In this document: positions 20,108-58,545 of the stretch, piece by piece
How the letters are laid out: each line of letters opens with the position of its first letter
How positions within the stretch are numbered: the stretch's first letter is position 1
Source: an uncultured Clostridia bacterium
GTDB lineage: Bacteria > Bacillota > Clostridia > TANB77 > CAG-508
Assembly (NCBI GenBank): GCA_944386175.1
Contig: CALXAB010000001.1
Span: forward strand, 47,645 to 111,644
Length of the DNA stretch: 64,000 bases
Reading direction: 5' to 3'
The notes under the pieces: generated by a model
Seen by the model: the letters and a program-made list of their open reading frames with translations, nothing else
Databases searched by the model: none
Told to the model about the DNA's origin: nothing
Position numbers and translations under genes: made by a program

Positions 20108-20345
20108 AGTACACTTAGTGAACTTTTTCTTAAAAATCACTTCTTTTTTGTTCATTTAGTGAACTTTTGCACTCTAAAAAGCGTTTTTTATCCATTCACT
20201 CGGTGAATTTTTGCATCAGATCTGCATAAAATTTTTGTTTTTTTATTAACTCTTGAAGGCTTGCCCTTCAATGTGTATATGCGTTGCGTAATGCACGCTA
20301 TCCTGCCTTTAGTATTCACTTTAGTTCACCTTATCAAAATTAATT
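20108..20345 (-). repeat. partial, orphan copy of the R module (distal half only)
   Basis: Collinear with 51134-51350, 36674-36880 and 43392-43605. Dyads at 20108-20124, 20150-20164 and 20194-20208. Conserved core and hairpin at 20246-20307. No smORF or recombinase adjacent. Confidence 0.85.
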
Positions 20346-20452
20346 TATGTAAATTGTTGAATTATTTCCTTTTTTATGCTATATTAACTGTATCGTTTCA
20401 AAATCTTCTTTATAAAATTTCTACTCAAAATTATTTCAAAGGAGGTGTATTT

Positions 20453-27997: not shown

Positions 27998-29317
27998 CTA
28001 TTTTTTATTTTTTTGTAGTATTTTTATAGTTTCATCTAGCGTTATAGTATTTTGTTCCCCTGAATTCATATCTTTTAATGTTATTACATTATTTTTTATT
28101 TCTTCATCTCCTATAATTATTACATAATTTGCATTAATATTATTAGCATACTTGAATTTTTTTCCTATCTTTTGTTGTTCAATATTAATTTGTACATTTA
28201 TACCCTTTTCTCTTAGTTTTGCAGCTACTTTTGCACACATTTCACAGTCATCTGTCATTGAAATTATTAATACTTCTGCAATTGTTTCTTCAGTTGCTGA
28301 AATTATTTTATTATCTATTAGTTGAAAAAATAGCCTTGATAATCCTATTGAAATCCCTACTCCTGGCATTTTTCTATCAGTATAAAATTCTGTTAAATTG
28401 TCATATCTTCCTCCTGAACATATACTTCCTAAGTTTTTATATTGATTTAAAAATGTTTCATAAACTGTTCCTGTATAATAATCTAACCCTCTAGCAATAC
28501 TCAAATCAATTTTATAATTCTCTTCTGGAACTCCAAATATTTCAATAAATTTAGAAACTTCTTTTATTTCTTTTATACCTTCATTAAATATTTCATTATT
28601 AATTTGCATATTTTCTAATTCTTTTATTTTTTCTTCATTGTTTCCTCCTATACCCAAAAATTTAATTATAACATTAGCTTTTTTTTCTGGCATAAGTACT
28701 AATAATTCTTTTTTTACTTCTTCTTTTCCTATTTTTTCTATTTTATCAATTATTCTTAATATTTCAGATGATATATCTTCAAGTTTTAAACTTGAAAAAA
28801 GTCCATTTAATATTTTTCGATTATTTATACATATTGTAAAATCATCAAATCCTAACTTTTTAAAGGTATTATATATAATAGATGGAATTTCTGCATCATT
28901 TATTATTGACAATTCACCATCTCCAATAATATCAACATCACATTGATAAAATTCTCTATATCTTCCTCTTTGAGGTTTCTCACCACGATATACTTTTCCT
29001 ATTTGGTATCTTTTAAATGGAAAACTTAATTTATCATAGTATTCAGTTACATATTTAGCTAATGGTACTGTTAAATCAAACCTCAAAGCTAAATCTGTAT
29101 CTCCTTTTTCAAATCTATAAATTTGTTTTTCCGTTTCTCCTCCAGCTTTGGCCAGTAAAACATTTGCATCTTCTATTATTGGTGTATCTAATGGTACAAA
29201 ACCATATTGTTCGTAAGATTCTTGTATTATCGCTCTCATTTTATTAAATAATATTTGTTCATTAGGTAATAATTCCATAAATCCTGGTAAAGTTTTTGGT
29301 TGTATTTTCCCTTTCAT
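27998..29317 (-). CDS. hisS: histidine--tRNA ligase, copy 1 (divergent type)
   Basis: Class II motifs FRYE-like (KQIYRFEKGD), RYREFYQCDVDIIG and GGRYDNL, plus a C-terminal anticodon-binding domain. 439 aa. Confidence 0.85.
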   Translation of the reverse strand: MKGKIQPKTLPGFMELLPNEQILFNKMRAIIQESYEQYGFVPLDTPIIEDANVLLAKAGGETEKQIYRFEKGDTDLALRFDLTVPLAKYVTEYYDKLSFPFKRYQIGKVYRGEKPQRGRYREFYQCDVDIIGDGELSIINDAEIPSIIYNTFKKLGFDDFTICINNRKILNGLFSSLKLEDISSEILRIIDKIEKIGKEEVKKELLVLMPEKKANVIIKFLGIGGNNEEKIKELENMQINNEIFNEGIKEIKEVSKFIEIFGVPEENYKIDLSIARGLDYYTGTVYETFLNQYKNLGSICSGGRYDNLTEFYTDRKMPGVGISIGLSRLFFQLIDNKIISATEETIAEVLIISMTDDCEMCAKVAAKLREKGINVQINIEQQKIGKKFKYANNINANYVIIIGDEEIKNNVITLKDMNSGEQNTITLDETIKILQKNKK

Positions 29318-29329
29318 TCTAACTCCTCC

Positions 29330-29980
29330 TTAATAATCTCCTTTAATATTTTTTTTCTTTTTATTTCCTTGTTTTTTATGTCTTTCAATTAATTTATCTT
29401 CTATTTCTTGTATTGAAACATTAGATTTAAACATTAATACTAGTGTATGATATATTAAATCAGAAATTTCTCCTATCAATTCTTTTTTATCTATGTTTTT
29501 CGCAGCTATTACTGTTTCAGTTGCTTCTTCACCAACTTTTTTGCATATTTTATCTATTCCTTCATCTAATAAATAATTAGTATATGAATTTTCCTTTGGA
29601 TTAATATTTCTATCAATTATCTGATTATAAATATCCTGTAAGATATTTGTATCATCATTATTTTCATAAGAAACTATTTCCTTAAAAAAGCATGAATAGT
29701 TACCAGTATGACATGCTCCTTTTCCTTCCTGCTTTACATAAATCAACAATGTGTCGTTGTCACAATCTAAATACATGCCTTTTATTTCTTGAATATTTCC
29801 TGATGTTTCTCCTTTATGCCATAATTCTTTTCTACTTCTTGAATAAAAACATGTTTGTTTGTTTTCTATCATATATTTATAACTATCTTCGTTTACATAT
29901 GCTAACATCAATACTTCTTTTGTTTTATAATCTTGTACTATTGCTGGAATTAACTCCATCTTTTTAAAATCTGGCTTCAA
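29330..29980 (-). CDS. hisIE: bifunctional phosphoribosyl-AMP cyclohydrolase / phosphoribosyl-ATP pyrophosphatase
   Basis: HisI part [18 protein letters not shown]...DCDNDTLL...ACHTG. HisE part [15 protein letters not shown]. Confidence 0.9.
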
Positions 29981-30082
29981 TATTCTTCAACTCCTAAAAT
30001 ATTTATATTACTTATATATTGTTATTTTTATTGTGGGGAAAATAATACAATTATTTTCCCCTTTGATTAAACACTTTAAATC

Positions 30083-31447
30083 TTAAAGCTCTTTATCAAG
30101 GTAGATTTTTAAATCTTCCTCTTTTCTCTCTTTCTGTAATCTTCTCATCTTGTCAACACTACTTACACCTTCAAGTAATTTAAATCCTAATTTCACGGCA
30201 ATATTATAGGACATAGATTTACCTATTTCGAGAGTTTTCATATATACTCTTTCATAACCATCCTCTTTCATTACTTCAATAGCATATTTCATTAACTCTG
30301 TCCCAATTCCTTTTCCACGAAACTCTTGTAAGACTGTTATATCAGCAAGATATGCTGTTTTTTCTGGATTATCATAATGGACAGGATGCCTATCTTTTAA
30401 TAACATTTTTCTAAAAGTTACTGTTCCTATACATTCATCTCCAATATAATATCCATAAACATGACCGTATTTTGTTAGTTCTTCATATTCTTCTTTGATT
30501 AAATCATCTGTCCAATCCTCACAATATGGGGGATTACAAAATACTTTATATGCTTTTATAAAGTCTTTTATTTTATCTGGTGTTATTGCTTTGATTCTCC
30601 GTGCCATCATAGTTTTTTCCTCCTCTAATTCAATTGAATATTTTTTTCCATCAGTTTCAACATTGCCTAAAATAGTAGCCTTTTCAAAATTCCCTTCTTT
30701 ATAGATTATGTCTGCTGTAATAATCAATCCAGAAGGCTGTAAAACATCAATTTTTACACTTTCATTTTTTAAATAAGCTTCTACAATACATGTAGCTGTT
30801 GTCCCAGACCCACATGCTGTTTCATAGAAAAGTGTATGAATTTCCTTAACCCATACAATTGGATTAATCTTTATTACACCTTTTTCTTTTTCGCAGAACA
30901 TAACTCCTACTGCTTCACTATATTCAAGATGATATTTATGAATATAGTGCATCCCCATTGCTTTTAAATCCTTCTTATTAATAAGATATTTTTTAGCAAT
31001 TTCATCTTGAATAACTACAGTTACCATACCATTCATTTTTACAATAAAAATTCCTGGCTCTTTTTCAGTGATTACATCATCACCATGATAAAGTGGAATT
31101 TCGCACCATGCCTTTCCTTCTTCATCAACTCCTGCATTAATCAAATCTTTAGAATTTACAAACATTTGTAAATTCCCTGATTTACCATTTAAATAAATGG
31201 TTGCTGCACTTCTTGTTGCATTACCACAAAACTCTCCCCCTGCCATTTGCAATTCAGGTTTATGATTTAATTCAATAAACCCAACCTGCTCAACATTAGA
31301 ATGTTTTGCCATAATCAAATCGTTGATTTTCTTTCTCTGTTTTTGTGTATATTCCAATCCATAAACGAATGCTGTATCATTACCAGCTGGTCTATAAATT
31401 GAATATTCCACATTAGTTACAGATGCTTTGCAATGTTTTTCGTTCAT
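30083..31447 (-). CDS. fusion protein: DapF-fold PLP-independent racemase/epimerase (N-terminal) + GNAT acetyltransferase (C-terminal)
   Basis: RPAGNDTAFV, GGEFCGNATRSAA and ETACGSGTTATC (two catalytic-Cys motifs of the DapF fold). The C-terminal part has VLQEFRGKGIGTELMKYA (GNAT motif A). Confidence 0.65.
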   Translation of the reverse strand: MNEKHCKASVTNVEYSIYRPAGNDTAFVYGLEYTQKQRKKINDLIMAKHSNVEQVGFIELNHKPELQMAGGEFCGNATRSAATIYLNGKSGNLQMFVNSKDLINAGVDEEGKAWCEIPLYHGDDVITEKEPGIFIVKMNGMVTVVIQDEIAKKYLINKKDLKAMGMHYIHKYHLEYSEAVGVMFCEKEKGVIKINPIVWVKEIHTLFYETACGSGTTATCIVEAYLKNESVKIDVLQPSGLIITADIIYKEGNFEKATILGNVETDGKKYSIELEEEKTMMARRIKAITPDKIKDFIKAYKVFCNPPYCEDWTDDLIKEEYEELTKYGHVYGYYIGDECIGTVTFRKMLLKDRHPVHYDNPEKTAYLADITVLQEFRGKGIGTELMKYAIEVMKEDGYERVYMKTLEIGKSMSYNIAVKLGFKLLEGVSSVDKMRRLQKERKEEDLKIYLDKEL

Positions 31448-31520
31448 AATGTTCTCCTTTCTTTGAATTGAAGGTAAGTATAAAATATTTATACTTAGTA
31501 ATGAATAAATTACATTAATT

Positions 31521-31549
31521 ATTATATATTCATTTTATGTAAAAGTCAA
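31521..31549 (-). promoter_or_regulatory. sigma-A-type promoter for the racemase-GNAT/hisIE/hisS unit
   Basis: TTGACT (31549-31544), 17-nt spacer, TATAAT (31526-31521). Its -35 overlaps the hairpin GTAAAAGTC...GACTTTTAC (31539-31577) just after the hisG stop. Confidence 0.5.
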
Positions 31550-31579
31550 GAAAATCCAGTATATTCAAGACTTTTACGG

Positions 31580-32215
31580 TTATTTATTATTTTGTTTTTC
31601 TATTAAATCAATTAAATTTAAAATTTCTTCCTTCTTATACTTAAATTTAGTCTTATTACAAATTAATCTTGTACTTACATCTGCTATTTTCTCTATAACT
31701 TCTAAGCCATTCGCTTTCAATGTTGCTCCTGTTTCTACTATATCTACTATTGCATCTGTTAATCCAACTACTGGTCCTAATTCAACTGACCCTTCAAGTT
31801 TTATTATTTCAACATCTTCATCTTTACTTTCAAAATAGTTTTTAGCAACACTAGGATATTTTGTTGCTATCCTTTTTCTTCTATTTAATTTTAGATTTTT
31901 ATATTCAGGATAACTACAGACTGCAAATGAGCATTTTCCTATTTCCAAATCTAGTAATTCATAATAATTTTTAAAAGAATTTTCCAGTAATGTATCACTA
32001 CCTACAATTCCTATATCAACAATACCATGTTCAATAAAGGTAACTACATCGTTTGACTTTGCAAATATTATTATCATTTTATCTTCTACGTTTATTTGTA
32101 ATTCTCTTTTTTTATTTATCATAGATTCTACATTATATCCTAATTTTTCTAACATTTCTGTCATCTTTTTTTCTATTCTACCCTTTGTTAAGGCTATCTT
32201 TAACATTTTGTTCAC
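31580..32215 (-). CDS. hisG: ATP phosphoribosyltransferase, short form
   Basis: 211 aa. [13 protein letters not shown] and [18 protein letters not shown]. The short HisG form requires HisZ. Confidence 0.9.
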
Positions 32216-33176
32216 CTGCTCTTTCTACTGCTTTTAATATATTATCCATATAATAAGCCATTCCTATGGCTGGTACATCCTTTCCGAAATTGTTATATAA
32301 TTTGTCATATCTTCCACCACTTATTATAGGTTCTTCTACAAATTTACTATATACTTTAAATATAATTCCTGTATAATATTCCATATTAGGAACACAAGCC
32401 AAATCAAACAAATCTTGTTGTTTCATATTCATGGTTTCATACAATTCTTTCAATTCTATTAGACTATTCTTTAATTCATTATCTCTTAATTTTTCTATGG
32501 TTCTTACTAATATTTCTATATTTCCATTAAGTCTTGGTAAAGATATTAAAAAATTGCTTATATTTTTATCTATATTATATTTATCACAAAATTTTTTTAA
32601 TCCACTTATATTTTTTTGTAGTAATAGCTGCGAAAACTCTTTCTTTTTTTCAGATCCAACTATTTGGCATAATCTATTATAAAAACTAGCTGAACCAAGT
32701 TCTATCTTTAAATCCTTTAATCCAAAAAGTGGTAAAGATTTTTGTAATAATGATATACACTCTACATCTCCTTCTATTGCTTTTTTTCCAATTAATTCTA
32801 TCCCTACTTGGTATATTTCGCTATTCTTTCCTTTATGTTCCTTTTCTTTTCTATATACTTTTCCAAAATAGCAATACCTTTTTATTTCATCTTTTTTTTG
32901 TGATACATAGTATCTAGCTATTGGAACTGTAAAATCCCATCTTAAAGCAACATCTTTTCCTTCTTTATTTATATATTTGAATAAAGTACTCTCATCTAAA
33001 TTCTTATATACACTTTTATATAATTCCACATATTCAAATGTTGGCATCAGCATTTCTATATATTTTTCATCATAGAATATCTTTCTCAATTTACTTTCAA
33101 AATTTCTTAATTTATTAACATTCTCAGTAATTACCCCACTACTTTCTTCTGGTATTGAAAATTTGTATAATTCCAT
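32178..33176 (-). CDS. hisZ: ATP phosphoribosyltransferase regulatory subunit (HisRS paralog without anticodon-binding domain)
   Basis: 332 aa with a HisRS-like catalytic core ([19 protein letters not shown]). Overlaps hisG. Confidence 0.85.
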
Positions 33177-33196
33177 AAAAATTCTCCTTTCACATT

Positions 33197-33251
33197 AAAA
33201 AGCTATATAGTTAAATAATATCTTTCTATGAATATTATCTACCTATATAGC
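33197..33251 (-). terminator. attenuator terminator in the hisZG leader
   Basis: On the minus strand: GCTATATAGG (33242-33251) ... CTATATAGC + TTTTT (33197-33210), 20 nt upstream of the hisZ RBS. Confidence 0.65.
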
Positions 33252-33314
33252 TTTATATTTTTATATAGGCACATCAAAATCGACTTGTGCCTATACATTA
33301 TATTAGACACAAGT

Positions 33315-33362
33315 TTAAAAATGATGATGCACTTTATTTATATTTTTAGTTATATTCTTCAT
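33315..33362 (-). CDS. 15-aa leader peptide MKNITKNINKVHHHF with three consecutive His codons
   Basis: AAGAGGAA RBS, ATG at 33362-33360, CAT CAT CAT at 33329-33321, TAA at 33317-33315. Followed by overlapping alternative stems. Confidence 0.6.
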   Translation of the reverse strand: MKNITKNINKVHHHF

Positions 33363-33392
33363 TTTTATTCCTCTTTTTTCTTATTTTTAATT

Positions 33393-33421
33393 ATAATACA
33401 TTATTTTTTTATATATGTCAA
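33393..33421 (-). promoter_or_regulatory. sigma-A-type promoter of the hisZG leader
   Basis: TTGACA (33421-33416), 17-nt spacer, TATTAT (33398-33393). Confidence 0.6.
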
Positions 33422-33482
33422 GTACAAAATTCATTTTTTTTAACATGCTATAACCAATTATGATTATAGCATGCTTTAGATT

Positions 33483-33767
33483 TTACTTAGAGAAAGATAT
33501 AATTGCATAATGTCGCTTTGCATCAATTTGATAATAAGAATGCCCCCTAATATTAATTGGCTTTTCTATTGTTTTAATAGAAATTTTCAGCCCATTACCA
33601 TTTGCCCAGCTTGTTAGTTCTCTTTCCATAGCAACATCTACATCCCTTTTTTCTTTTTCAATCTGAACTTTCTTGAAAAATACTAATGCTACTTTTACTT
33701 TGAACTTAATCCATTCCGTATCAAACCGTGACCTTTCTCTTCTTTTTCTACTTTCAAATTTTGACAT
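33483..33767 (-). CDS. hypothetical basic protein (94 aa)
   Basis: ORF only. Followed by the hairpin AGCATGCTATAA..TTATAGCATGTT. Confidence 0.35.
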   Translation of the reverse strand: MSKFESRKRRERSRFDTEWIKFKVKVALVFFKKVQIEKEKRDVDVAMERELTSWANGNGLKISIKTIEKPINIRGHSYYQIDAKRHYAIISFSK

Positions 33768-33873
33768 ATAGATTTACCTCCTACTATTTATTTTATTTAT
33801 TTTATCACATACACTTATATTTTTCAATTAAAATTTTAGGAAGCCATGCATTATACACAGCTCCCTATGATTT

Positions 33874-35205
33874 TCAGTCCTTATTATTAGTTTCGATAAA
33901 TTGCATAATCCCTTCATAGTCAAAGATACCGAACTCTCGATTGTTTCCAGTTTCCATATCCTTGACTTGGATTTTTTGCTGTTTGATTTCATCTTCCCCA
34001 ATAATAATAACGTAAGGAATGTTCATTTTGTTGGCATAATTCATACTTTTTTTCAGTTTCTGAGTCTTTTTTTCCATTTCTGTTTTGATTCCAACTTCAC
34101 GCATTTTAGTAACAAACTTAAATGTCTGTTCTTCTGTTCCCATTGGAATCACAAACAAATCAACGGTAGAAAACTTTTTGTCAGAATTCTTTAAGACTAA
34201 AATTTCATATATAACATCTAATCCAAAAGACATTCCAACTGCTGGATATTCATTTCCATCATCAATGAATGTTGTAATAATTTTATCGTATCTGCCTCCT
34301 CCTCCTATGCTCATGTTGAAATCTTGTACACCAACTTTTCTGTCTTTCAGGAAAATCTCCCAAACTGTACCAGTATATATATCAATCCCTCTTGCCAAAT
34401 AAGGAGCAAATTTCATGCATTTTTCGGCCTCTGTTCCTGACAGATAATCATATAATGCATCAATTTCTTTTATCCCTTCGGCAATCATTTCATTATCATA
34501 TACTGATAATAATCTTTTTAATGTTACATAATCAGAGTTTAGAACATTTTTCAATGCCTCCACTTTATTGGCATCAATACCAATAGCTGCAAACTCTTCA
34601 AATAATTCTTCCTCTGTGAGTTTGGCAAACTTATCAATCAACATGATTGATTTTCTTAATATTTCTTCCGAAACATCACCAAAAATAGAGAAGATGATAC
34701 CACTCAATAGCTTTCTGTTGTTGAATTCTATTTCAATGTCAAGTCCTAGCTCTTTATATGCTTCGCTTGTCATTGTCATGTATTCTGCTTCTGCTAAAAC
34801 ACTTTTAACTCCAACAACATCAACATCGCATTGGGTAAATTCTCTGTTTCTACCTACCTTAACTGGACCATCTCTAAAAACTTTTCCAATCTCATACCGT
34901 TTAAAGGGTAAGGTAACTCCTTTATTTGAACTAATCAATTTAGAAAAAGTGATTGTCAAATCATACCTTAAACCCAGTTTTCTTTTTCCTTGATCACTCA
35001 ATTTGTACATCTCGTTCAGAATATCTGCACCTTCTGAATATTTAGATGCCAATAAGTCATACATACAAAGAATTGGTGTTTCGACTGGTGAAAATCCGTA
35101 CTTTACAAAGATGCTTTGCAATACACTTTTGATTTTTTCCCGGATAATTTGTTTTTCCGGCAAATAATCATAAGTCCCCTTTAAGTTTTCAAAATTTCTG
35201 CTCAT
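33874..35205 (-). CDS. hisS: histidine--tRNA ligase, copy 2 (canonical bacterial type)
   Basis: KGTYDYLPEKQ, LRYDLTITFSK, NREFTQCDVDVVG and GGGGRYDK, plus an anticodon-binding domain. 443 aa. Confidence 0.85.
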   Translation of the reverse strand: MSRNFENLKGTYDYLPEKQIIREKIKSVLQSIFVKYGFSPVETPILCMYDLLASKYSEGADILNEMYKLSDQGKRKLGLRYDLTITFSKLISSNKGVTLPFKRYEIGKVFRDGPVKVGRNREFTQCDVDVVGVKSVLAEAEYMTMTSEAYKELGLDIEIEFNNRKLLSGIIFSIFGDVSEEILRKSIMLIDKFAKLTEEELFEEFAAIGIDANKVEALKNVLNSDYVTLKRLLSVYDNEMIAEGIKEIDALYDYLSGTEAEKCMKFAPYLARGIDIYTGTVWEIFLKDRKVGVQDFNMSIGGGGRYDKIITTFIDDGNEYPAVGMSFGLDVIYEILVLKNSDKKFSTVDLFVIPMGTEEQTFKFVTKMREVGIKTEMEKKTQKLKKSMNYANKMNIPYVIIIGEDEIKQQKIQVKDMETGNNREFGIFDYEGIMQFIETNNKD

Positions 35206-35450: not shown

Positions 35451-36125
35451 TTAAAATTCCCTTATATCATATCTAAAATATAGTCCATCCATTTTTATTT
35501 TATGAAAATCTTTTATTATATTTTCTTTGACTTTATTAAAATCTTTTCCTACTCTTCTTAATGCAAATACTCTACCTCCTGAAGGATATAGTATATTATT
35601 TTTTGATATTATATGTTCCCCTATAATATCTGTTGTATTTTTTACTTTGTTCATACCTAAAATTGGTTCATCAAAACTACTTCTTTCTACTTCTGGATAT
35701 CCTGCTGAAAATCCATACATTGCTATAGAAAAGCAGTCTTTTTTCCAACAATTATTTATCTTTTCTACATCTTCATAAAAGAAATTTATTATATCTATAA
35801 AAGGTTTATTCAGTAACCCTAATAAAGCTAACCACTCTGGATTACCTGTTCTTGTATTATATTCTAATACATATACTTTTTTATCTTCGGTAACCATTAT
35901 TCCTATATATAAAATATAGTTATATTCCATATTTTCTTTTTTCATACCTCTTATAGTTGGTTCTATTATATCTTTTTTTAATTGTTCTTCTTTTTCTGTG
36001 CTAACTCTTGCATAAGCACATACTCTTAAATTACCTTTTATAACTTCTCCTGTTGTTCTATTAATTCTTCCTTTTTTCTTCTCTATTACTTGTACTTTCA
36101 AATTTAACCTCTCTTTCTCAAGCAT
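35451..36125 (-). pseudogene. chimeric ORF: first 48 codons of an LSR gene fused in frame to the C-terminal ~176 aa of a PurD-like (phosphoribosylamine-glycine ligase) gene
   Basis: Residues 1-48 (MLEKERLNLKVQVIEKKKGRINRTTGEVIKGNLRVCAYARVSTEKEEQ) are almost identical to LSR 48681-50573. From 35981 leftwards the sequence matches the PurD C-terminal half (EYNTRTGNPEW, SGGRVFAL, DGLYFRYDI). Confidence 0.8.
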
Positions 36126-36168
36126 AGAGAATCTTTATGTTTGTATTATATACTAAAATTTTATATTT

Positions 36169-36439: not shown

Positions 36440-36890
36440 ATTTTTTGATAATACAATTATATTATGCTGTTCTATAAAGTTCAATTCCCGTTTTTTTCCC
36501 TTTTTTCTATTTTAATTGATAAAGCGTTGACTTTTTAGTTAGTACACTAAGTAAACTTGTGTAAAAATTTTTTTAATTATTTTTTACTTTATTATTTTTG
36601 AGTTCACTTAGTGTACTTTTTGTTTTGTATTTAAAAACCTTAGTTCACTTAGTGAATAAAAAACTAACTTTCAAGTACACTTGGTGAACTTTTTCTTAAA
36701 AATCACTTATTTTTCGTTCATTTAGTGAACTTTTGCACTCTCAAAGGCATTTTTTAGCTGTTCATTCGGTGAATTTCCGCATCAAATTTGCTTAAAATTT
36801 TTGTTCTTTTGTTAACTCTTGAAGGCTTGTCCTTCAATGTGTATAGGCGATGTGTGCACACTCGCTTTCCTGCCTTTAGTATTGTTTTTT
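36440..36890 (-). repeat. R module, copy A
   Basis: Dyads at 36541-36557, 36601-36617, 36642-36658, 36674-36690, 36716-36730 and 36760-36774. Core and hairpin at 36812-36874. Ends 2 nt from the stop of the ABC gene. Confidence 0.85.
36456..36484 (-). promoter_or_regulatory. consensus sigma-A promoter of unit A'
   Basis: TTGAAC (36484-36479), 17-nt spacer, TATAAT (36461-36456). A terminator-like leader hairpin at 36403-36427 plus a T-run follows. Confidence 0.6.
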
Positions 36891-36891
36891 A

Positions 36892-38670
36892 TCATATATT
36901 AATTACTTTTTGTTGACTCATATATAATTTATAATAATTTCCTTTTATGCTCATTAATTCTTCATGAGTTCCATATTCTACTATTTCTTTATCTTTAATA
37001 AAAAATATTCTGTCACTATCCACTATTGTAGATAATCTATGAGCAATCGTTATTACAGTTTTATTTTTAACCATTTCTTTTGTTAGATTTTGTAGCATTT
37101 TTTCTGTTTTTACATCAATCTTACTTGTTGCTTCATCGAAGATTAATATTTTAGGGTTATTAATAATTGTTCTTATATAGCATAATACCTGTTTTTCTCC
37201 ATCTGATAGATTTTTTCCATTACTACTTAATTTTGTATTGTATCCATCTTCTAAACTCATTATCCAATTATGTACATTCAATCTTTTACATATTTCTATT
37301 ACTTTATCATCAGTTATATTTTCATTTCCATATTTTAAATTTTTCATAATGCTTGTACTAAATAAGTAATTTTCTTGTTGCATAATAGCTATCTGTTTTC
37401 TAAGTCTATTTAGTTTTATATTTCTAACATCTTCTCCATCAATAAAAATATTTCCTGAATCTATATCATAAAATCTTCCAATTAGATTTGTAATAGTGGT
37501 TTTTCCACTTCCTGTACTACCTACAATAGCTACTTTTTCTTGCGGTTTTACTTTAAAAGATATATTATTTAAAACTTTATTATTTTCTATATAAGAAAAA
37601 CTAACATTTTTAAATTCTATTTCACCTTTTATTTTGATGTCTTTAGCATCTATTTTATCTTTTATATCTATTTTTTCATCCATTGTTTCAAATATTCTCT
37701 CTAAATATGTAATTGAATTAATAAAATCATCTAATGTTTTAAATAAGTCTTCTATAGGTTGCCAAAAGTTAGATGAATAACTTCCCATAGCAACAATAGT
37801 TCCAACTGATGTAGTTGGATATAAAAACATCGCTCCTACAAAATATATTGTTGCAGTTACCCAATGTGACATTGTTTGTACACTACACCATCCAATATTG
37901 CCAAATTTTATTTGTTTGCAACTTGCATCTTTCCAACTTCTACTTAAATCATTAAATATATCTTCATTCTTTTCTTCTCTATTAAATGCTTGGGTTATTT
38001 GCATTCCTTTTAATGTTTCTAATAGATATGCATTAGTATTAGAATTTTTATTATTAATTAGTAATTTATTTTTTCTCTTTATCTTAGCTGTTGAAGCAAA
38101 TATAAAAATAAGTATTACTATTCCAACTAATGCGATTAATGTTAGTTTCACACTTGTTAAAAACATAAATATCAGAATAATAAGCATATTAAATATGTTT
38201 AAAAATGTTGTTACTAATTTATCTGTAATTAGAGTAGAAACATCTTCTGCATATTCTGTTAGTCTAACTAGTATTTTTCCATGAGGTCTTGTGTCGTAAT
38301 AATTAACTGATAAATACTGAATATGTGAAAACAAATCATTTTTTATATCTTCTACAATATTTTGATTTACTTTAGCCAACATTTTTTTATACACTTTAGT
38401 TACAATAATAGACAATAATACTAAAAATAATGCTAATAATATTATGATAAACAATTTTTCATAATCGCTATTAGGAATAACATCATCGATTACATATTGT
38501 AGTATTTTAGTGATAAATAAAGTAGCTATAATAGATATACAATTTAAAATAAATATAATAATCAATTTTGATTTATATTTTTTTATGTATGTTAAACCTC
38601 TTTTATAATTAGAAAGACTGAATGAAGTATTTTTTTCATCTTGGTCATATTTGTTTACACTCATATACAT
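36892..38670 (-). CDS. ABC exporter, fused permease/ATPase (heterodimer partner 2)
   Basis: Six N-terminal TMs, Walker A GSTGSGKTT, signature LSDGEKQ, Walker B ILIFDEATS. Confidence 0.85.
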   Translation of the reverse strand: MYMSVNKYDQDEKNTSFSLSNYKRGLTYIKKYKSKLIIIFILNCISIIATLFITKILQYVIDDVIPNSDYEKLFIIILLALFLVLLSIIVTKVYKKMLAKVNQNIVEDIKNDLFSHIQYLSVNYYDTRPHGKILVRLTEYAEDVSTLITDKLVTTFLNIFNMLIILIFMFLTSVKLTLIALVGIVILIFIFASTAKIKRKNKLLINNKNSNTNAYLLETLKGMQITQAFNREEKNEDIFNDLSRSWKDASCKQIKFGNIGWCSVQTMSHWVTATIYFVGAMFLYPTTSVGTIVAMGSYSSNFWQPIEDLFKTLDDFINSITYLERIFETMDEKIDIKDKIDAKDIKIKGEIEFKNVSFSYIENNKVLNNISFKVKPQEKVAIVGSTGSGKTTITNLIGRFYDIDSGNIFIDGEDVRNIKLNRLRKQIAIMQQENYLFSTSIMKNLKYGNENITDDKVIEICKRLNVHNWIMSLEDGYNTKLSSNGKNLSDGEKQVLCYIRTIINNPKILIFDEATSKIDVKTEKMLQNLTKEMVKNKTVITIAHRLSTIVDSDRIFFIKDKEIVEYGTHEELMSIKGNYYKLYMSQQKVINI

Positions 38671-40821: not shown

Positions 40822-41004
40822 TTATGTGTTTCCACTTACCACATCTGCAACTACTTTAACTTTCACATCTGAATTTTGATGTTTTTCTCTTCCATATCTT
40901 CCTTTTTTCTCGAAAGTTATAATCTCTGAAAACATATCAAATTCAAGTATTACCTGTCCTGTTTTAGTTGTAGCACTGCCACACATTCCACATGTGTTGG
41001 TCAT
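40822..41004 (-). CDS. CxxC tail module of LSR B, in a separate overlapping frame
   Basis: MTNTCGMCGSATTKTGQVILEFDMFSEIITFEKKGRYGREKHQNSDVKVKVVADVVSGNT is homologous to the in-frame C-terminus of LSR C. Overlaps the end of LSR B by 41 nt. Confidence 0.5.
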   Translation of the reverse strand: MTNTCGMCGSATTKTGQVILEFDMFSEIITFEKKGRYGREKHQNSDVKVKVVADVVSGNT

Positions 41005-42679: not shown

Positions 42680-42881
42680 CTTTCCTCCGTTCCGCCTAGA
42701 GATAAAACTTAATAATTTTATTTTATAGAAAAGTGCATTTTAATGCATCTTTTCTATAAAACAAGGTTAATTTACCTATATTTGCCCGAGCTTTAGCTCG
42801 TGGCATTTGAGCCTAGAAATCTTTGATTTCGTTAAGGCTCAATTATCTTATATCATTTTTTAGATAAAAAGTAAATTGTTC

Positions 42882-43199: not shown

Positions 43200-43640
43200 T
43201 CTATTTTTGATATAATTCTAGTATCTAATTTTATAAGTACACTAAGTAAACTAAAAATTGTATAATTTTAAATTGCAGTTCACTTGGTGTACTAGAAAAA
43301 TATAACAAAAGTTCACTAAGTGTATTTGTAAATTTTGTTTTATTTTCACATTCACTTAGTGAACTAAATTCAAAAATATTATTCAATATCAAGTACACTT
43401 GGTGAACTTTTTCCCAAAATAAGTGAATTTTTTTAATTTTTTAATTCACCATTTTTAATTTTGAACGAAGAATAGCGGGTTTGAGCCAGTTCACCGAGTG
43501 AATTTTTACATCATATTTGCATAAAATTTTTGTTTTTTTATTAACTCTTGAAGGCTTGTCCTTCAATATGTATAGGCATTTTGTTAAGAATGCTATCCTG
43601 CCCTCATTTTCAATGAGGTATTTTGCTCTTAAAATGTACT
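43200..43640 (-). repeat. R module, copy B (diverged)
   Basis: Dyads at 43236-43252, 43277-43293, 43310-43326, 43350-43365, 43392-43408 and 43488-43504. Outward-facing half sites at 43422-43450. Core and hairpin at 43541-43603. Confidence 0.8.
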
Positions 43641-43685
43641 TATTCTACTTAATTAAATATACTTATCCTTAAATCCTCTTAATCG

Positions 43686-48680: not shown

Positions 48681-50573
48681 TTATACTACTCCGCACACCA
48701 TGTCAACTTCTATCGTTACTTTAATTTTATGATTTTCTGTTCTTTTAACCTTATTTTTGCCTTTTCTATCAAAACTAATAAAATCTTCAAAAGCAGTAAA
48801 TTGGGCTATTGTATCGAATCTTTCAGACATAGCACCGAGCAACACTCCACATGGCTCACACCCAGTCTGTAGATAGTTTTGGCTTACCTCGTATGATGAC
48901 TGTTGCAAACTACCTTGATTTTTATCTTTTTGACATTTGATTTCGTTTCCAGATTTTAGGATAAATGTTATTACTCTTGGATTTACATCTCCATTTTGTT
49001 CTTTTTCTCCTATTATAACTTTTTCTATCATTAATTCAAAAACATCTTTATCAAATGTTGGCATTATTTCATCATCTTTAAATAGACTTTTAAACTTGTT
49101 TAATCCTTGATTTAAACTAATTGAATCTTCTAACTCTAGTTGTAAATGTTCTTGCTCTTTTTCTATTTTGTTTATCTTGTTTTGTAATTTTGCCTTTTTA
49201 TCTTTTAATGTTTCAAGTGTTATTGTTCCATTCAAGTTTAAATCAATTAACTTGTCTATCTTTTCTTTTAAAGTTTGTTTTTCTTCTTCTAATTTTTTAA
49301 TAGAACTTTCATTACTTTCTTCTTGTATGATTTCTTCCATTTGTTTTAAGAATGTTTTGATTAGTTTTTTGTTATTATTACATAAAAGTTTATAACTTTC
49401 TGTAAATGCTTCTTCTATAATGTTTTCTTTCATTGCTTTACAATATGGGCAATTTTCTTTTCCATGTTTTACAAATTCCATACAATGCCATACCGTAATA
49501 CTATTTTTTGTTCCAGAGTGCCAGTTTCTTCTTGTTAATAAACTTCCACAAAAACCACAATATATTCTACTACTAAAAGGATATTTTCTGCTAAAGTTTC
49601 CTTTTCTTCTTCCAGAGCCTCGTACTCCTCCTCGCTTTTGTAATATTTCTTGTGCTTGATTAAACATTCTTTCTGAAATAATTGGTTCATGATGTTCTTG
49701 TATGTAATACTGATTTTCTTCTCCCATATTGACTACTCTTCTATGTGAGATTGGATCTGTTGTATATGTTTTTCCTTGTAAGACATCTCCTTTGTATTTT
49801 TCGTTTTTCAAAATACCTCTTATAGTTGAGTCATGCCATTGTTTCTTTCCTGTTGGTGTTTTATATTTCATAGCAGTTAGTTCTTTTGCAATTGTTGTGC
49901 AACCTACTCCTTGACAGTATCTTTCAAAGATATATCTTACTATTTCTGCTTCTTGATAATTTACTGATATTTTCTTTGTTTCTTTATCATATACATATCC
50001 TAAACATCCATTATATCCAATTAATTCTCCTCTTTTTTGTTTCATCTGTAATCCTAGTTTTACATGAGAAGATATATTTTCGCTCTCCTGCTGTGCCATT
50101 GCACTCATTACTGTTAGCATTACTTCGCCAGATAATTCTAAAGTATTGATGTTTTCTTCTTCAAAATAAATAGTGATTCCTTTTTCCTTTAATAATCTTA
50201 CATACTTTAAAGTATCTACTGTATTTCTTCCAAATCTTGATATTGATTTTGTAATTATCATGTCAAATTTGTTTTCTGTTGCATCTTGCATCATTCTCAT
50301 AAAGTTATCTCTTTTATAGTCAAGTGTTCCTGTTATCCCTTCATCTGCATAAATCCCTACATAAGTCCAATCACTTCTTGATTTTATTTTTTCTTCATAA
50401 TATTTTAGCTGAGAATTATAACTATTTATTTGTTCTTCTTTTTCTGTACTAACTCTTGCATAGGCACATACTCTTAAATTGCCTTTTATAACTTCTCCTG
50501 TTGTTCTATTAATTCTTCCTTTTTTCTTCTCTATTACTTGTACTTTCAAAATTAACCTCTCTTTCTCAAGCAT
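48681..50573 (-). CDS. large serine recombinase, unit C, with an in-frame C-terminal CxxC tail
   Basis: VCAYARVSTEKEEQ, SISRFGRNTVD, CGFCGSLLTRRNW...CPYCK and a coiled coil. About 90 extra C-terminal residues are homologous to ORF 40822-41004. Confidence 0.9.
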   Translation of the reverse strand: MLEKERLILKVQVIEKKKGRINRTTGEVIKGNLRVCAYARVSTEKEEQINSYNSQLKYYEEKIKSRSDWTYVGIYADEGITGTLDYKRDNFMRMMQDATENKFDMIITKSISRFGRNTVDTLKYVRLLKEKGITIYFEEENINTLELSGEVMLTVMSAMAQQESENISSHVKLGLQMKQKRGELIGYNGCLGYVYDKETKKISVNYQEAEIVRYIFERYCQGVGCTTIAKELTAMKYKTPTGKKQWHDSTIRGILKNEKYKGDVLQGKTYTTDPISHRRVVNMGEENQYYIQEHHEPIISERMFNQAQEILQKRGGVRGSGRRKGNFSRKYPFSSRIYCGFCGSLLTRRNWHSGTKNSITVWHCMEFVKHGKENCPYCKAMKENIIEEAFTESYKLLCNNNKKLIKTFLKQMEEIIQEESNESSIKKLEEEKQTLKEKIDKLIDLNLNGTITLETLKDKKAKLQNKINKIEKEQEHLQLELEDSISLNQGLNKFKSLFKDDEIMPTFDKDVFELMIEKVIIGEKEQNGDVNPRVITFILKSGNEIKCQKDKNQGSLQQSSYEVSQNYLQTGCEPCGVLLGAMSERFDTIAQFTAFEDFISFDRKGKNKVKRTENHKIKVTIEVDMVCGVV

Positions 50574-50616
50574 AGAGAATCTTTATGTTTGTATTATATA
50601 TTAAAATCTTATATTT

Positions 50617-50802
50617 TTAAATACCTATATGAGTTAAATCATATTCTTTTAAAATATTTTGTTTTAGTTCTAAATATCTTTCCTCTTTAATTAGTCCTGC
50701 ATTATATGTTTTATTTAGAATTGCTATTTTAATGCTACAATTAAAAATATTTTCATTTAGTTTTACATTTTTCGTATTATCAAATTTTACTTCGTACAAC
50801 AT
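50617..50802 (-). CDS. 61-aa conserved small ORF preceding the LSR (copy C)
   Basis: AGGGAGAA RBS. Same protein as copy A apart from a few substitutions. The 105-aa form in the ORF track would run through the leader hairpin and promoter. Confidence 0.6.
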   Translation of the reverse strand: MLYEVKFDNTKNVKLNENIFNCSIKIAILNKTYNAGLIKEERYLELKQNILKEYDLTHIGI

Positions 50803-50905
50803 AAAAATTCTCCCTTGCTTAAATAAAATTTCAAAAAAGAGCAATAGAAAAAGCCAGTCGGCTAGCTTCGACTGACTTCTTTGTCTGACATTTTTTGATA
50901 ATACG

Positions 50906-50934
50906 ATTATATTATGATGTTCTATAAAGTTCAA
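50906..50934 (-). promoter_or_regulatory. consensus sigma-A promoter of unit C
   Basis: TTGAAC (50934-50929), 17-nt spacer, TATAAT (50911-50906). A leader hairpin AGTCAGTCG..CGACTGGCT at 50852-50878 plus TTTTT follows. Confidence 0.6.
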
Positions 50935-50939
50935 TTCCC

Positions 50940-51355
50940 GTTTTTTTCCCTTTTTTCTATTTTAATTGATAAAGTGTTGATTTTTTAGTTAGTACACTAA
51001 GTGAACTTGTGTAAAAATTTTTTTAATTATTTTTTACTTTATTATTTTTGAGTTCACTCGGTGTACTTAGTTTTTTATTATATCAATTTTTAGTACACTT
51101 AGTGAACTAATTATAAATTATTTCATAAAATTTAGTACACTTGGTGAACTTTTTCTTAAAAATTACTTATCTTTCGTTCATTTAGTGAACTTTCACACTC
51201 TAAAAGAGATTTTTTAGTCATTCATTCGGTGAATTTTTGCATCAAATTTGCTTAAAATTTTTGTTCTTTTATTAACTCTTGAAAGCTTGACCTTCAATGT
51301 GTATATGCGTTGCGTGATGCACGCTATCCTGCCTTTAGTGTTCACTTTATATCCT
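50940..51355 (-). repeat. R module, copy C
   Basis: Dyads at 50991-51007, 51051-51067, 51092-51108, 51134-51150, 51176-51190 and 51220-51234. Core and hairpin at 51272-51333. Abuts the stop codon of the 617-aa gene. Confidence 0.85.
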
Positions 51356-53209
51356 TTAATTAGTATTAGATTCTGATGTAGTTTTATTTACAACACCCAA
51401 GTTCTTAATACTATCTTGTAAACTTTCATCTGGAATAAAGTTTCTACAATTTTCTAATTTATAAAATTCCCCTAATTTATCTATATCTTTATATAAGAAA
51501 TAAAAATAGTTTTTTAATGCATTTTCTGTTGTTTCTAATCTAGGTCTTAATGAGTATGCTCTTTTCTTCTTATAGAAATAGTTTTCATTAAATAATTTAT
51601 ATAAATTATTTAGTTCATCACTATCTAATGTTATTTTGTGAAATCTCGTTTCTTTGAAAATATAATTTATTTTATCAATGTCTATATTTAAATCATCAAC
51701 ATATTCTCTAATGTTATTCTTGCTTATTATAGTTATTATAGATAATGTAATACTCATAATTATATAATCCATAAATTCTTTTGATAAATTCATTGTCCTA
51801 AATATTTTTATTGATCTAATATCATTGTTTTCAATCATTTTTAAAAACATTATAATGATTGGTTCACCCTTTATAAGATATGGTATAAATATTTCTTCTT
51901 CATGTATATTTTTTCTTTGCAGAAAATCATTAATACTTCTATCTGGAAATTTTTCCCTATGTTCCATTAATCTAATATTATCGTATAATTCTTCTAGTAC
52001 TCTGTACTTTTCATTTTTAGTTAAATTCTTATTTTCAATAACACATGTATATACAGATTCTAAATATCTATTACTAGTAAACATATATATAGAATCATAT
52101 TTATATAATCTACAATAGCTAAAATCTATAACATTTTCATATAGAAAAATTAAATACATATCTAATTTAATAATTCTCCATACAAGATTTATATATTCTT
52201 TTTCTTGACTTTCAGTTTGAATATATTTTATTTTATCTATTAAATTTGCAATATTTTGCATTTTATAATCATCATGAACAGGCACAAATTCATAATAAGC
52301 AAACATTGTATAAAGTTTACAATATATATTTGCAGCCTCTATATGTTTATTATATAAAATCAAATGCGAAACTATTTCATGTATAGCACTAATCAAATCA
52401 CTTCTAAAAATCATTTCTGTATAATATTCTTGAAGAATTTTTTTGTTATTAAATAAAGTTAAATCTATAAGATTCATTATGTTGTGAATATTATAATTAT
52501 AATCATTATCATTTTTTTGTATTAATACTAATGTTTGATTCTTTAAGTCTGTGATATCTTTGCACCCATGGCTATTTAGAGGAATCGCCTTTTTTATATG
52601 CTTCTTTTGTTTCTCTAAATACATACATAGTAAACTGTTTCCAAACCAATTTTTATGAGTGTAAAACCAAATCATTTTAATACACATATAAAATATAACT
52701 ACAAGAGAAAGCAAAAAATTTATTAATATTAGTATTTGACTACTGCCTTTTAGGCATTGTATAATATTTACAAATAATAGGAGAACTAAAATTATAAAAA
52801 TTTTTAGCAATGATAAAAAACTATTGTTAGGGAAAATAACATTAATATGTTTTTTTCCCAATATATAACTTTCAGACAACCCAGATAATAAAGATATTAC
52901 TGAAATTATTATCAATGTATTACTAATTTGAGCTACTAATATATCATTTGAATCAATGTTAAATTCTTTATTCAAGTCTAATATATTTTCAATTTTGTAA
53001 TCATTAATAGCATAAAAAATTACAAACATACTAAATATAACTATACTAAACATAAAAATAATCATTAAAAAATTCATAATTTTTTGTTTAACTACAAAAT
53101 ATTTTTTATTATCATATATTTTATACCATTTTAAAAATTCTTTTATTTTATAATTTTTATTTAAAATAAATCTTCTTATTTTTTTTAATTTACCATTAGA
53201 ATCTTCCAT
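51356..53209 (-). CDS. 617-aa membrane protein of unknown function, downstream of AbiEii
   Basis: About five N-terminal TM helices, then a ~400-aa soluble region with no motif I recognise. Lies 56 nt after abiEii. Confidence 0.55.
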   Translation of the reverse strand: MEDSNGKLKKIRRFILNKNYKIKEFLKWYKIYDNKKYFVVKQKIMNFLMIIFMFSIVIFSMFVIFYAINDYKIENILDLNKEFNIDSNDILVAQISNTLIIISVISLLSGLSESYILGKKHINVIFPNNSFLSLLKIFIILVLLLFVNIIQCLKGSSQILILINFLLSLVVIFYMCIKMIWFYTHKNWFGNSLLCMYLEKQKKHIKKAIPLNSHGCKDITDLKNQTLVLIQKNDNDYNYNIHNIMNLIDLTLFNNKKILQEYYTEMIFRSDLISAIHEIVSHLILYNKHIEAANIYCKLYTMFAYYEFVPVHDDYKMQNIANLIDKIKYIQTESQEKEYINLVWRIIKLDMYLIFLYENVIDFSYCRLYKYDSIYMFTSNRYLESVYTCVIENKNLTKNEKYRVLEELYDNIRLMEHREKFPDRSINDFLQRKNIHEEEIFIPYLIKGEPIIIMFLKMIENNDIRSIKIFRTMNLSKEFMDYIIMSITLSIITIISKNNIREYVDDLNIDIDKINYIFKETRFHKITLDSDELNNLYKLFNENYFYKKKRAYSLRPRLETTENALKNYFYFLYKDIDKLGEFYKLENCRNFIPDESLQDSIKNLGVVNKTTSESNTN

Positions 53210-58364: not shown

Positions 58365-58545
58365 TTATGTGTTTCCATTTACCATATCTGCAACTACTTT
58401 AACTTTCACATCTGAATTTTGATGTTTTTCTCTTCCAAATCTACCTTTTTTATTAAAAGTTATAATCTCTGAAAACATATCAAAATCAAGTATTACCTGC
58501 CTTTCTTTAGTTGTAGCACTGCTACACACTCCACATGTGTGGTCG
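58365..58545 (-). pseudogene. orphan 3' end of an LSR gene (CxxC tail only)
   Basis: HTCGVCSSATTKERQVILDFDMFSEIITFNKKGRFGREKHQNSDVKVKVVADMVNGNT with no start codon. Similarity to LSR B stops at ~58545, next to CACATGTG (58532-58539). Confidence 0.75.

Follow-up and report, generated by a model that had tools for sequence, protein, structure and literature searches.

A terminator-like hairpin in the promoter-proximal leader of smORF and large serine recombinase operons in cassettes of uncultured gut Clostridia

In the 64,000-nt stretch of DNA from an uncultured Clostridia bacterium analysed here (the window), a terminator-like hairpin lies ~20 nt beyond a predicted promoter region and is followed by a U tract and then by the RBS of a small open reading frame (smORF) that precedes a large serine recombinase (LSR) gene. 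By sequence comparison, more than 60 related mobile cassettes from uncultured gut Clostridia have kept this promoter-hairpin leader, and since the same promoter-hairpin-U tract-RBS layout recurs in two diverged smORF-LSR families, a functional leader hairpin conserved in both is well supported. The element would form the 5' control region of a two-gene operon, composed of a 61-aa SHOCT-like smORF and the LSR, which forms the constant part of small mobile cassettes. It is proposed that a sigma-A-type promoter would start an RNA whose first ~70 nt would fold as one long structured leader, and that the inner stem-loop with its immediate U tract, having the shape of an intrinsic (Rho-independent) terminator, would be expected to stop most polymerases, whether these come from the unit's own promoter or from co-oriented upstream cargo genes, leaving a ~50-nt RNA while a minority reads on into smORF-LSR. 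The element would then be an unregulated attenuator and insulator keeping recombinase expression low, and to an unregulated leader terminator or insulator limiting smORF-LSR expression we tentatively assign a probability of about 0.45. In the read-through RNA, the 5' end would pair with a second U tract in an outer helix (P1), this tract being otherwise able to pair with the Shine-Dalgarno region, and the full-length leader may therefore also set mRNA stability or translation. Transcription start, termination, termination efficiency and every downstream effect are here predicted from sequence, conservation and pairing.

The units considered are designated C, B and A', and their elements are as follows.

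50934-50929, minus strand: -35 hexamer TTGAAC of unit C (motif scan and conservation in relatives)
50911-50906, minus strand: -10 hexamer TATAAT of unit C (motif scan and conservation in relatives)
50899, minus strand: A50899, predicted start of unit C, after the -10 hexamer and CGTATT (placed by distance to the -10)
50898-50891, minus strand: 5' strand of outer helix P1, UCAAAAAA (RNAalifold and MFE fold)
50881-50848, minus strand: extended stem of unit C, 13 bp via A/U pairs
50877-50852, minus strand: inner terminator-like hairpin of unit C, 9 bp with a loop of 8 nt
50877-50869, minus strand: 5' arm of this hairpin, AGUCAGUCG
50868-50861, minus strand: its loop, AAGCUAGC
50860-50852, minus strand: its 3' arm, CGACUGGCU
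50851-50843, minus strand: U-rich tail directly 3' of the C stem, UUUUCUAUU
50838-50831, minus strand: 3' strand of outer helix P1, UUUUUUGA, with the Shine-Dalgarno region as alternative partner
Between the P1 3' strand and the RBS of unit C, minus strand: AAAUUUUAUUUAAGC
50816-50810, minus strand: RBS of unit C, AAGGGAG
50802-50617, minus strand: smORF C, 61 aa, ATG at 50802
50573-48681, minus strand: LSR C, 630 aa, large serine recombinase (Pfam Resolvase, Recombinase and Zn_ribbon_recom)
43178-43150, minus strand: promoter of unit B, TTGACT-17-TATAAT
43141-43085, minus strand: leader hairpin of unit B, 27 bp, with a U-rich 3' end
43058-42882, minus strand: smORF B, downstream of the unit B hairpin
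42679-40964, minus strand: LSR B (Pfam Resolvase, Recombinase and Zn_ribbon_recom)
36484-36456, minus strand: promoter of unit A', same as that of C
36427-36403, minus strand: hairpin of unit A'

The first-pass annotation had described a TTGAAC-17-TATAAT promoter in C and A' and, downstream of the C promoter, a hairpin, a U run and the RBS of the smORF; the hexamers and their spacing are present as described, and the order is borne out on the minus strand, which carries all genes in unit C's part of the window. From 5' to 3', unit C comprises an A-rich stretch, the promoter, the 5' strand of P1, a linker of ~10 nt, the hairpin, the U tail, a further linker and the 3' strand of P1. All three domains that define an LSR, i.e. 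Resolvase, Recombinase and zinc ribbon, were found by Pfam in both LSR C and LSR B.

In the DNA scanned for promoter-like and terminator-like sites, which has a G+C content of 25%, 14 terminator-like sites were observed versus 2.1 expected, with the leader hairpins of C, A' and B among them. The properties of an intrinsic terminator – a stem-loop with G/C pairs, a loop of 3-8 nt and a U tract directly 3' – are seen in C and B, the 9 bp of the C stem including 5 G-C and 2 G.U pairs. The 55-nt C leader RNA folds on the sense strand at -17.2 kcal/mol (z -3.95), with 0 of 200 shuffles as good, and its complement at -11.5 kcal/mol (z -1.0). The d'Aubenton-Carafa discriminant score, computed with our own implementation, was 8.3 for C (with a tail score T of 4.4) and -2.8 for A', and extended from -8.9 (locus L034) to 17.1 in other C variants, four of the eight C-type leaders scored being positive, so that terminator likeness by this score is modest for the C type. 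A genome scan gave 59 loci in MAGs of uncultured gut Clostridia, e.g. Candidatus Merdicola. Across 46 distinct C-type leaders the hairpin is paired in 99.5% of cells and the CUUUUU that follows the stem is invariant (46/46); hardly any variation is seen at positions +1 to +17, in the hairpin and its CUUUUU, or in UUUUUUGAAAU, whereas the intervening linkers vary. Variation within the hairpin is restricted to a U-A/U-G alternation (31/14) and, together with one invariant U.G pair, this fits an RNA made from the strand considered here. No pair of the hairpin was altered on both sides in the 46 leaders and the shuffling control was uninformative, so that conservation within the C type could reflect recent common descent. 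The stems of C and A' had been said to differ with pairing retained through G-U or compensating bases; a U-A to U-G wobble is indeed found, whereas the other change is a one-base deletion and not a compensating base.

An independent comparison is provided by the B-type leaders, to which a metagenome scan and look-ups added loci; units B and C have diverged to 41% identity in the smORF and 58% in the LSR. The leader hairpin of unit B, considered weak in the first-pass annotation, is instead a 27-bp duplex with a loop of 3 nt, at -31.5 kcal/mol and z -7.1, followed by a U-rich run. The B-type hairpin is unrelated in sequence to that of the C type yet sits at the same leader position. A common layout is found in 17/17 distinct B-type leaders, consisting of TATAAT, 6 nt, AUGAAAAAG, the hairpin, UUUUUCUUUU(U)C, AAAUUUAAAG and the RBS, with 19-27 pairs plus UUUUUCUUUUUC retained in all of them, and in an earlier set of 16 the z-scores were -3 to -11. 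The stems vary by locus, e.g. GCAAAGAGAUUAG, GUUAGGAAGAUU and GCAAGAAAGAUUAG, and in each case the 3' arm matches. In a plain MAFFT alignment of 15 of the distinct B-type leaders, pairing holds in 94% of cells, and at three pairs both sides have changed (8 cells), a count matched by only 9 of 500 shuffles; cognate arms fold at -23.0 kcal/mol compared to -18.5 kcal/mol for chimeras that combine the arms of different leaders. Because the stems are long, AU-rich and of low complexity, with one arm purine-rich and the other pyrimidine-rich, pairing persists in 69-75% of cells even when the register is slid by 1-3 columns, and the covariation support from the B-type leaders is therefore modest. The sense strand folds better in 12 of the 17 leaders and the antisense strand as well or better in 5. 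The discriminant score is positive in 11 of the 16 B-type leaders scored (mostly 12-23) and negative in 5.

Beyond the inner hairpin, RNAalifold and the MFE fold predict the outer helix P1, in which UCAAAAAA near the predicted 5' end pairs with UUUUUUGA beyond the first U tract; P1 encloses the hairpin in the C type and extends it in the B type. The families were compared using TATAAT plus 6 nt as the anchor on the 5' side and AAATTT on the 3' side. The second P1 pair is C:G in 45/45 C-type leaders and G:C in 16/17 B-type leaders, the remaining one being G.U, and this change is, as aligned, a compensatory swap between the families. P1 is invariant within C-type leaders, and the base of the helix lies 1-2 nt from the predicted start in both families, at predicted +2. 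Formation of P1 requires RNA that extends beyond the first U tract, i.e. read-through, and a plain terminator needs no such helix, so its conservation suggests that the full-length leader matters too. These properties favour a reading in which the leader acts in the full-length mRNA, where it would serve as a 5' stabiliser shielding the transcript from 5'-dependent decay, as a site for RNase III and/or as a control of Shine-Dalgarno access, as do the near-perfect B-type duplexes of 19-27 bp, which are long enough for RNase III, and the MFE fold of A', in which the second U tract pairs with the Shine-Dalgarno region and hides it. This reading is the main rival of the leader terminator, and we regard it as rather unlikely, since the invariant U tract right after the inner stem has the classical terminator shape, ~20 nt separate the C-type inner hairpin from a 5' end whose position is predicted, and insertions of 55-170 nt are tolerated in the interval that divides the hairpin from the 3' strand of P1. 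These include a 170-nt insertion directly after the hairpin U tract in five C-type units (L017, L018 at 2795-2963, L021, L038 and L051), which bears its own inverted repeats, and one of ~55 nt after the U tract in two B-type units (L085 and L099), which brings a second hairpin plus a T run; the tolerance of such insertions fits a position-independent terminator. A leader terminator and a role in the full-length mRNA are compatible readings and not exclusive of one another.

The evidence on the promoter bears on a further alternative, namely that the hairpin is a terminator (possibly bidirectional) of the upstream co-oriented cargo and that the promoter is a chance match or weak. Promoter-like sites are not enriched in the DNA scanned (151 observed versus 146.7 +/- 13.2 in shuffles), and a terminator scan found no second terminator-like site between the end of the upstream cargo gene (51356) and the C hairpin, a result that speaks for the leader terminator as well. 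In L018 a cargo gene stops 25 nt before the -35 hexamer and ~100 nt before the hairpin, and in unit C an A tract and a U tract flank the hairpin, whose plus strand also scores as terminator-like. However, the hexamers lie 17 nt apart in C and B, within the 17 +/- 1 nt of sigma-70/sigma-A promoters, with consensus scores of 10/12 for C and 11/12 for B, the latter at the TTGACT-17-TATAAT site that had already been proposed for unit B. Among the 46 distinct C-type leaders the -10 TATAAT is invariant (46/46), the -35 is TTGAAC or TTGATT, and the spacer keeps its length of 17 nt despite three unrelated spacer sequences; the B-type promoters share the layout TTGA(C/T)T-17-TATAAT, with hexamers and spacing conserved as in the C type. 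That hexamers, exact spacing and leader blocks are kept while spacer and linkers vary points to a genuine promoter and to constraint on the leader. In addition, a separate terminator-like hairpin, read by eye, stands right after the cargo gene upstream of unit B, and there is no alternative promoter between the hairpin and the smORF. A role solely in terminating cargo transcription is thus considered unlikely.

An attenuator gating recombinase expression had been put forward from the sequence of the window. The attenuator shape fits and the layout is conserved in two families, whereas the gating finds no counterpart, either as an antiterminator or as an Rfam family. No antiterminator alternative to the C hairpin was found: the MFE and centroid folds retain the hairpin, only ~20 nt precede it, and the sole alternative stem in the C leader uses the same 3' arm. 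Rfam gave no match in the whole window at the gathering score, and a permissive search of 50560-51400 returned chance miRNA-like matches only. The leaders resemble Firmicutes leader attenuators in having a promoter-proximal stem-loop with a G/C base, a U tract 3' of it and an A tract upstream, placed before the RBS, but differ from them in that no antiterminator, sensor domain or Rfam cis-regulatory match was found, so that attenuation, if any, appears to be unregulated. A conditional switch, in which read-through or processing would be triggered by a factor such as the smORF product, the LSR or a protein binding the dyad-repeat array upstream, is judged improbable; were it true, recombinase bursts and cassette excision or shuffling in SCC-like arrays of gut Clostridia would be signal-dependent, and the leader would represent an undescribed class of recombinase riboregulator.

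The promoter and terminator could also constitute a small-RNA gene whose trans-acting product would measure ~50 nt in the C type and ~60 nt in the B type. A 115-nt promoter-hairpin block (50963-50849) stays an intact module even in rearranged loci where it lies 170 nt from the smORF, and +1 to +17 is invariant while the next ~9 nt are variable among C-type leaders. Such a gene is quite improbable, as the block is always found upstream of, and co-oriented with, a smORF, pairing within the leader already accounts for the invariant 5' segment, and Rfam provides no match. Lastly, it is highly improbable that the inverted repeat acts as DNA, i.e. as a protein-binding or recombination site or as a transfer or replication origin, as might be suggested by an imperfect ~70-bp palindrome centred on AGCTAGC (read by eye) and by the five of 17 B-type leaders that fold equally well on both strands, because the cassette recombination junction lies elsewhere, at the LSR 3' end, G.U pairs favour the sense-strand fold in the C type and in 12/17 B-type leaders, and it is pairing, not stem sequence, that is conserved between the families.

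The unregulated leader terminator can be compared with other arrangements that limit recombinase expression. In phage lambda the sib/tI hairpin is found 3' of int, where it works via RNase III on RNA that reads through; it is likewise a terminator-shaped hairpin that doubles as a long duplex and controls the surviving integrase message, whereas the hairpin of the present units is 5' of the operon, the enzyme is a serine recombinase and processing is putative. In Tn4451/Tn4453, the promoter of the large resolvase gene tnpX is assembled only on the circular form. The common element is a Clostridial mobile-element LSR whose expression is, or in the present units would be, kept low by the 5' layout, but the promoter of the units is intact when integrated and the recombination core is at the LSR 3' end rather than in the interval between promoter and gene. 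In insertion sequences, terminators and RBS-hiding folds at the IS ends guard transposase genes against read-through from outside; similarly, a structure immediately preceding the recombinase gene could stop or silence transcripts that enter from the co-oriented cargo, although the unit's own promoter is upstream of the structure, so that its own transcripts meet it as well. No description of a leader terminator in front of a serine recombinase gene turned up in our literature search. The leader plausibly adds a new, so far undescribed case to a known kind of leader control, and the attenuator idea is a reasonable hypothesis for it. If the hairpin terminates transcription, it would show how these small cassettes hold their recombinase nearly silent and shielded from cargo-gene transcription, and would offer a compact portable promoter-terminator module for very low recombinase levels. 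The leader would be a further case of a familiar principle, and the cassette arrays themselves are more interesting.

The units are the constant parts of tandem LSR cassettes, with a 15-nt core, ACACATGTGGARTGT, as the likely att crossover. Three copies of the core are present in the window (0.12 expected), at the following positions.

58526-58540, minus strand: core ACACATGTGGARTGT, no LSR precedes
48842-48856, minus strand: core ACACATGTGGARTGT, in the 3' end of an LSR frame
40983-40997, minus strand: core ACACATGTGGARTGT, in the 3' end of an LSR frame

As far as the core, one metagenome contig (L101) shares 99.4% identity with the window, and it then continues into a different right arm; in a set of 20 distinct junctions, at least 6 right-arm types are joined to left arms of the C type, the B type or a non-LSR kind. 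This arm switch and the free combination of left and right arms indicate that the core, and not the LSR 5' region, is the recombination junction. SCC-type ccr LSR cassette arrays and the Dehalococcoides ssrA islands (PMC3146451) consist of cargo cassettes, each with an LSR. The likeness to these arrays is one of context only, in that several LSR-bearing cassettes follow one another head to tail with a short shared core at each join; they differ in recombinase subfamily, host and core sequence, and in the present units the att core is inside the LSR 3' frame and a dyad-repeat array and the smORF are located upstream. Among the cargo are genes for AbiE toxin-antitoxin, a Schlafen/Fic-like protein, ABC exporters, APH and GNAT; defence, resistance and transport are thus represented in what these cassettes of uncultured gut Clostridia carry. 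Further cargo genes and no island end were encountered in the 10 kb walked past the right end of the window.

Two other locations for the crossover were considered and rejected. An attP inside the LSR 5' coding region, with integration splitting the gene, was suggested by unit A' and by the uninterrupted purD-like locus of L068 and is discounted by heterogeneous breakpoints (-9 nt in L070, +48 nt in L094, codon 77 in L027, with internal deletions in L052 and L064) and by the sharp mosaic junction at the LSR 3' end. The truncated LSRs of other loci, breaking at different nearby positions (codons ~31-77), suggest a deletion-prone 5' region rather than a site-specific crossover. An att site in the leader just after the hairpin is discounted by the 170-nt insertion, upstream of which the promoter-hairpin block is still found. 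Unit A' is a decayed copy, in which the first 48 LSR codons run in frame into the 3' half of a purD-like gene (35451-36125, minus strand); the purD-like ATP-grasp locus is uninterrupted in a related metagenome contig (L068, 2315-3605).

Searches with the smORF proteins returned 182 protein clusters for the C-type query and 283 for the B-type query, and the smORF upstream of the LSR is, on this evidence, a real gene family. The predicted smORF model is a two-helix hairpin (pLDDT 78.7), for which a fold search against the PDB gave generic helical hairpins only, with E above 1, and B-type smORF relatives weakly match Pfam SHOCT_2. The smORF families were absent from the IMG/VR viral contigs and PLSDB plasmids searched, an exact look-up of LSR C returned no record, and no paper linking SHOCT to serine recombinases was found in the literature.

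Several further features were observed around the units. Each unit opens with a conserved block of ~240 nt, present in four copies (51134-51375, 43403-43644, 36674-36915 and 20108-20349) that are 60-86% identical to the reference copy and contain both a 7-bp hairpin, TTGAAGG/CCTTCAA, and a G+C-richer segment, GGCAGGATAGCG...; promoter, smORF and LSR are all missing from the orphan copy at 20108. Dyad-symmetric 14-15-mers (TTCACNNNGTGWAC) occur as 5-7 per array at 50992-51190, 43237-43503, 36542-36773 and 20109-20208, with 38 matches versus 0.74 expected, only upstream of unit promoters and mostly ~41 bp apart; these are probably protein-binding arrays, and the inner part of the dyad, CAC-N3-GTG, resembles the att core CACATGTG. 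Between smORF and LSR lies a terminator-like hairpin that is identical in C (50567-50591) and A' (36119-36143); owing to G.T pairs, its pairing is better on the plus (antisense) strand, where it may terminate an antisense transcript. The corresponding gap in unit B is ~200 nt and includes a stretch missing from C (42740-42870, minus strand) with two G+C-richer hairpins, GAGCCT...AGGCTC and GCCACGAGC...GCTCGGGC. The array adjoins a cluster at 27998-35205 composed of three histidyl-tRNA-synthetase-like genes, hisG, a CntK_N/GNAT fusion and a purD-like gene, which may be a small-molecule biosynthesis cluster and is conserved in contig L068, where a pantoate-ligase-like gene is added. Beside this histidyl-tRNA-synthetase-like/hisG cluster lies a promoter with a 12/12 consensus score, at 35311-35283.
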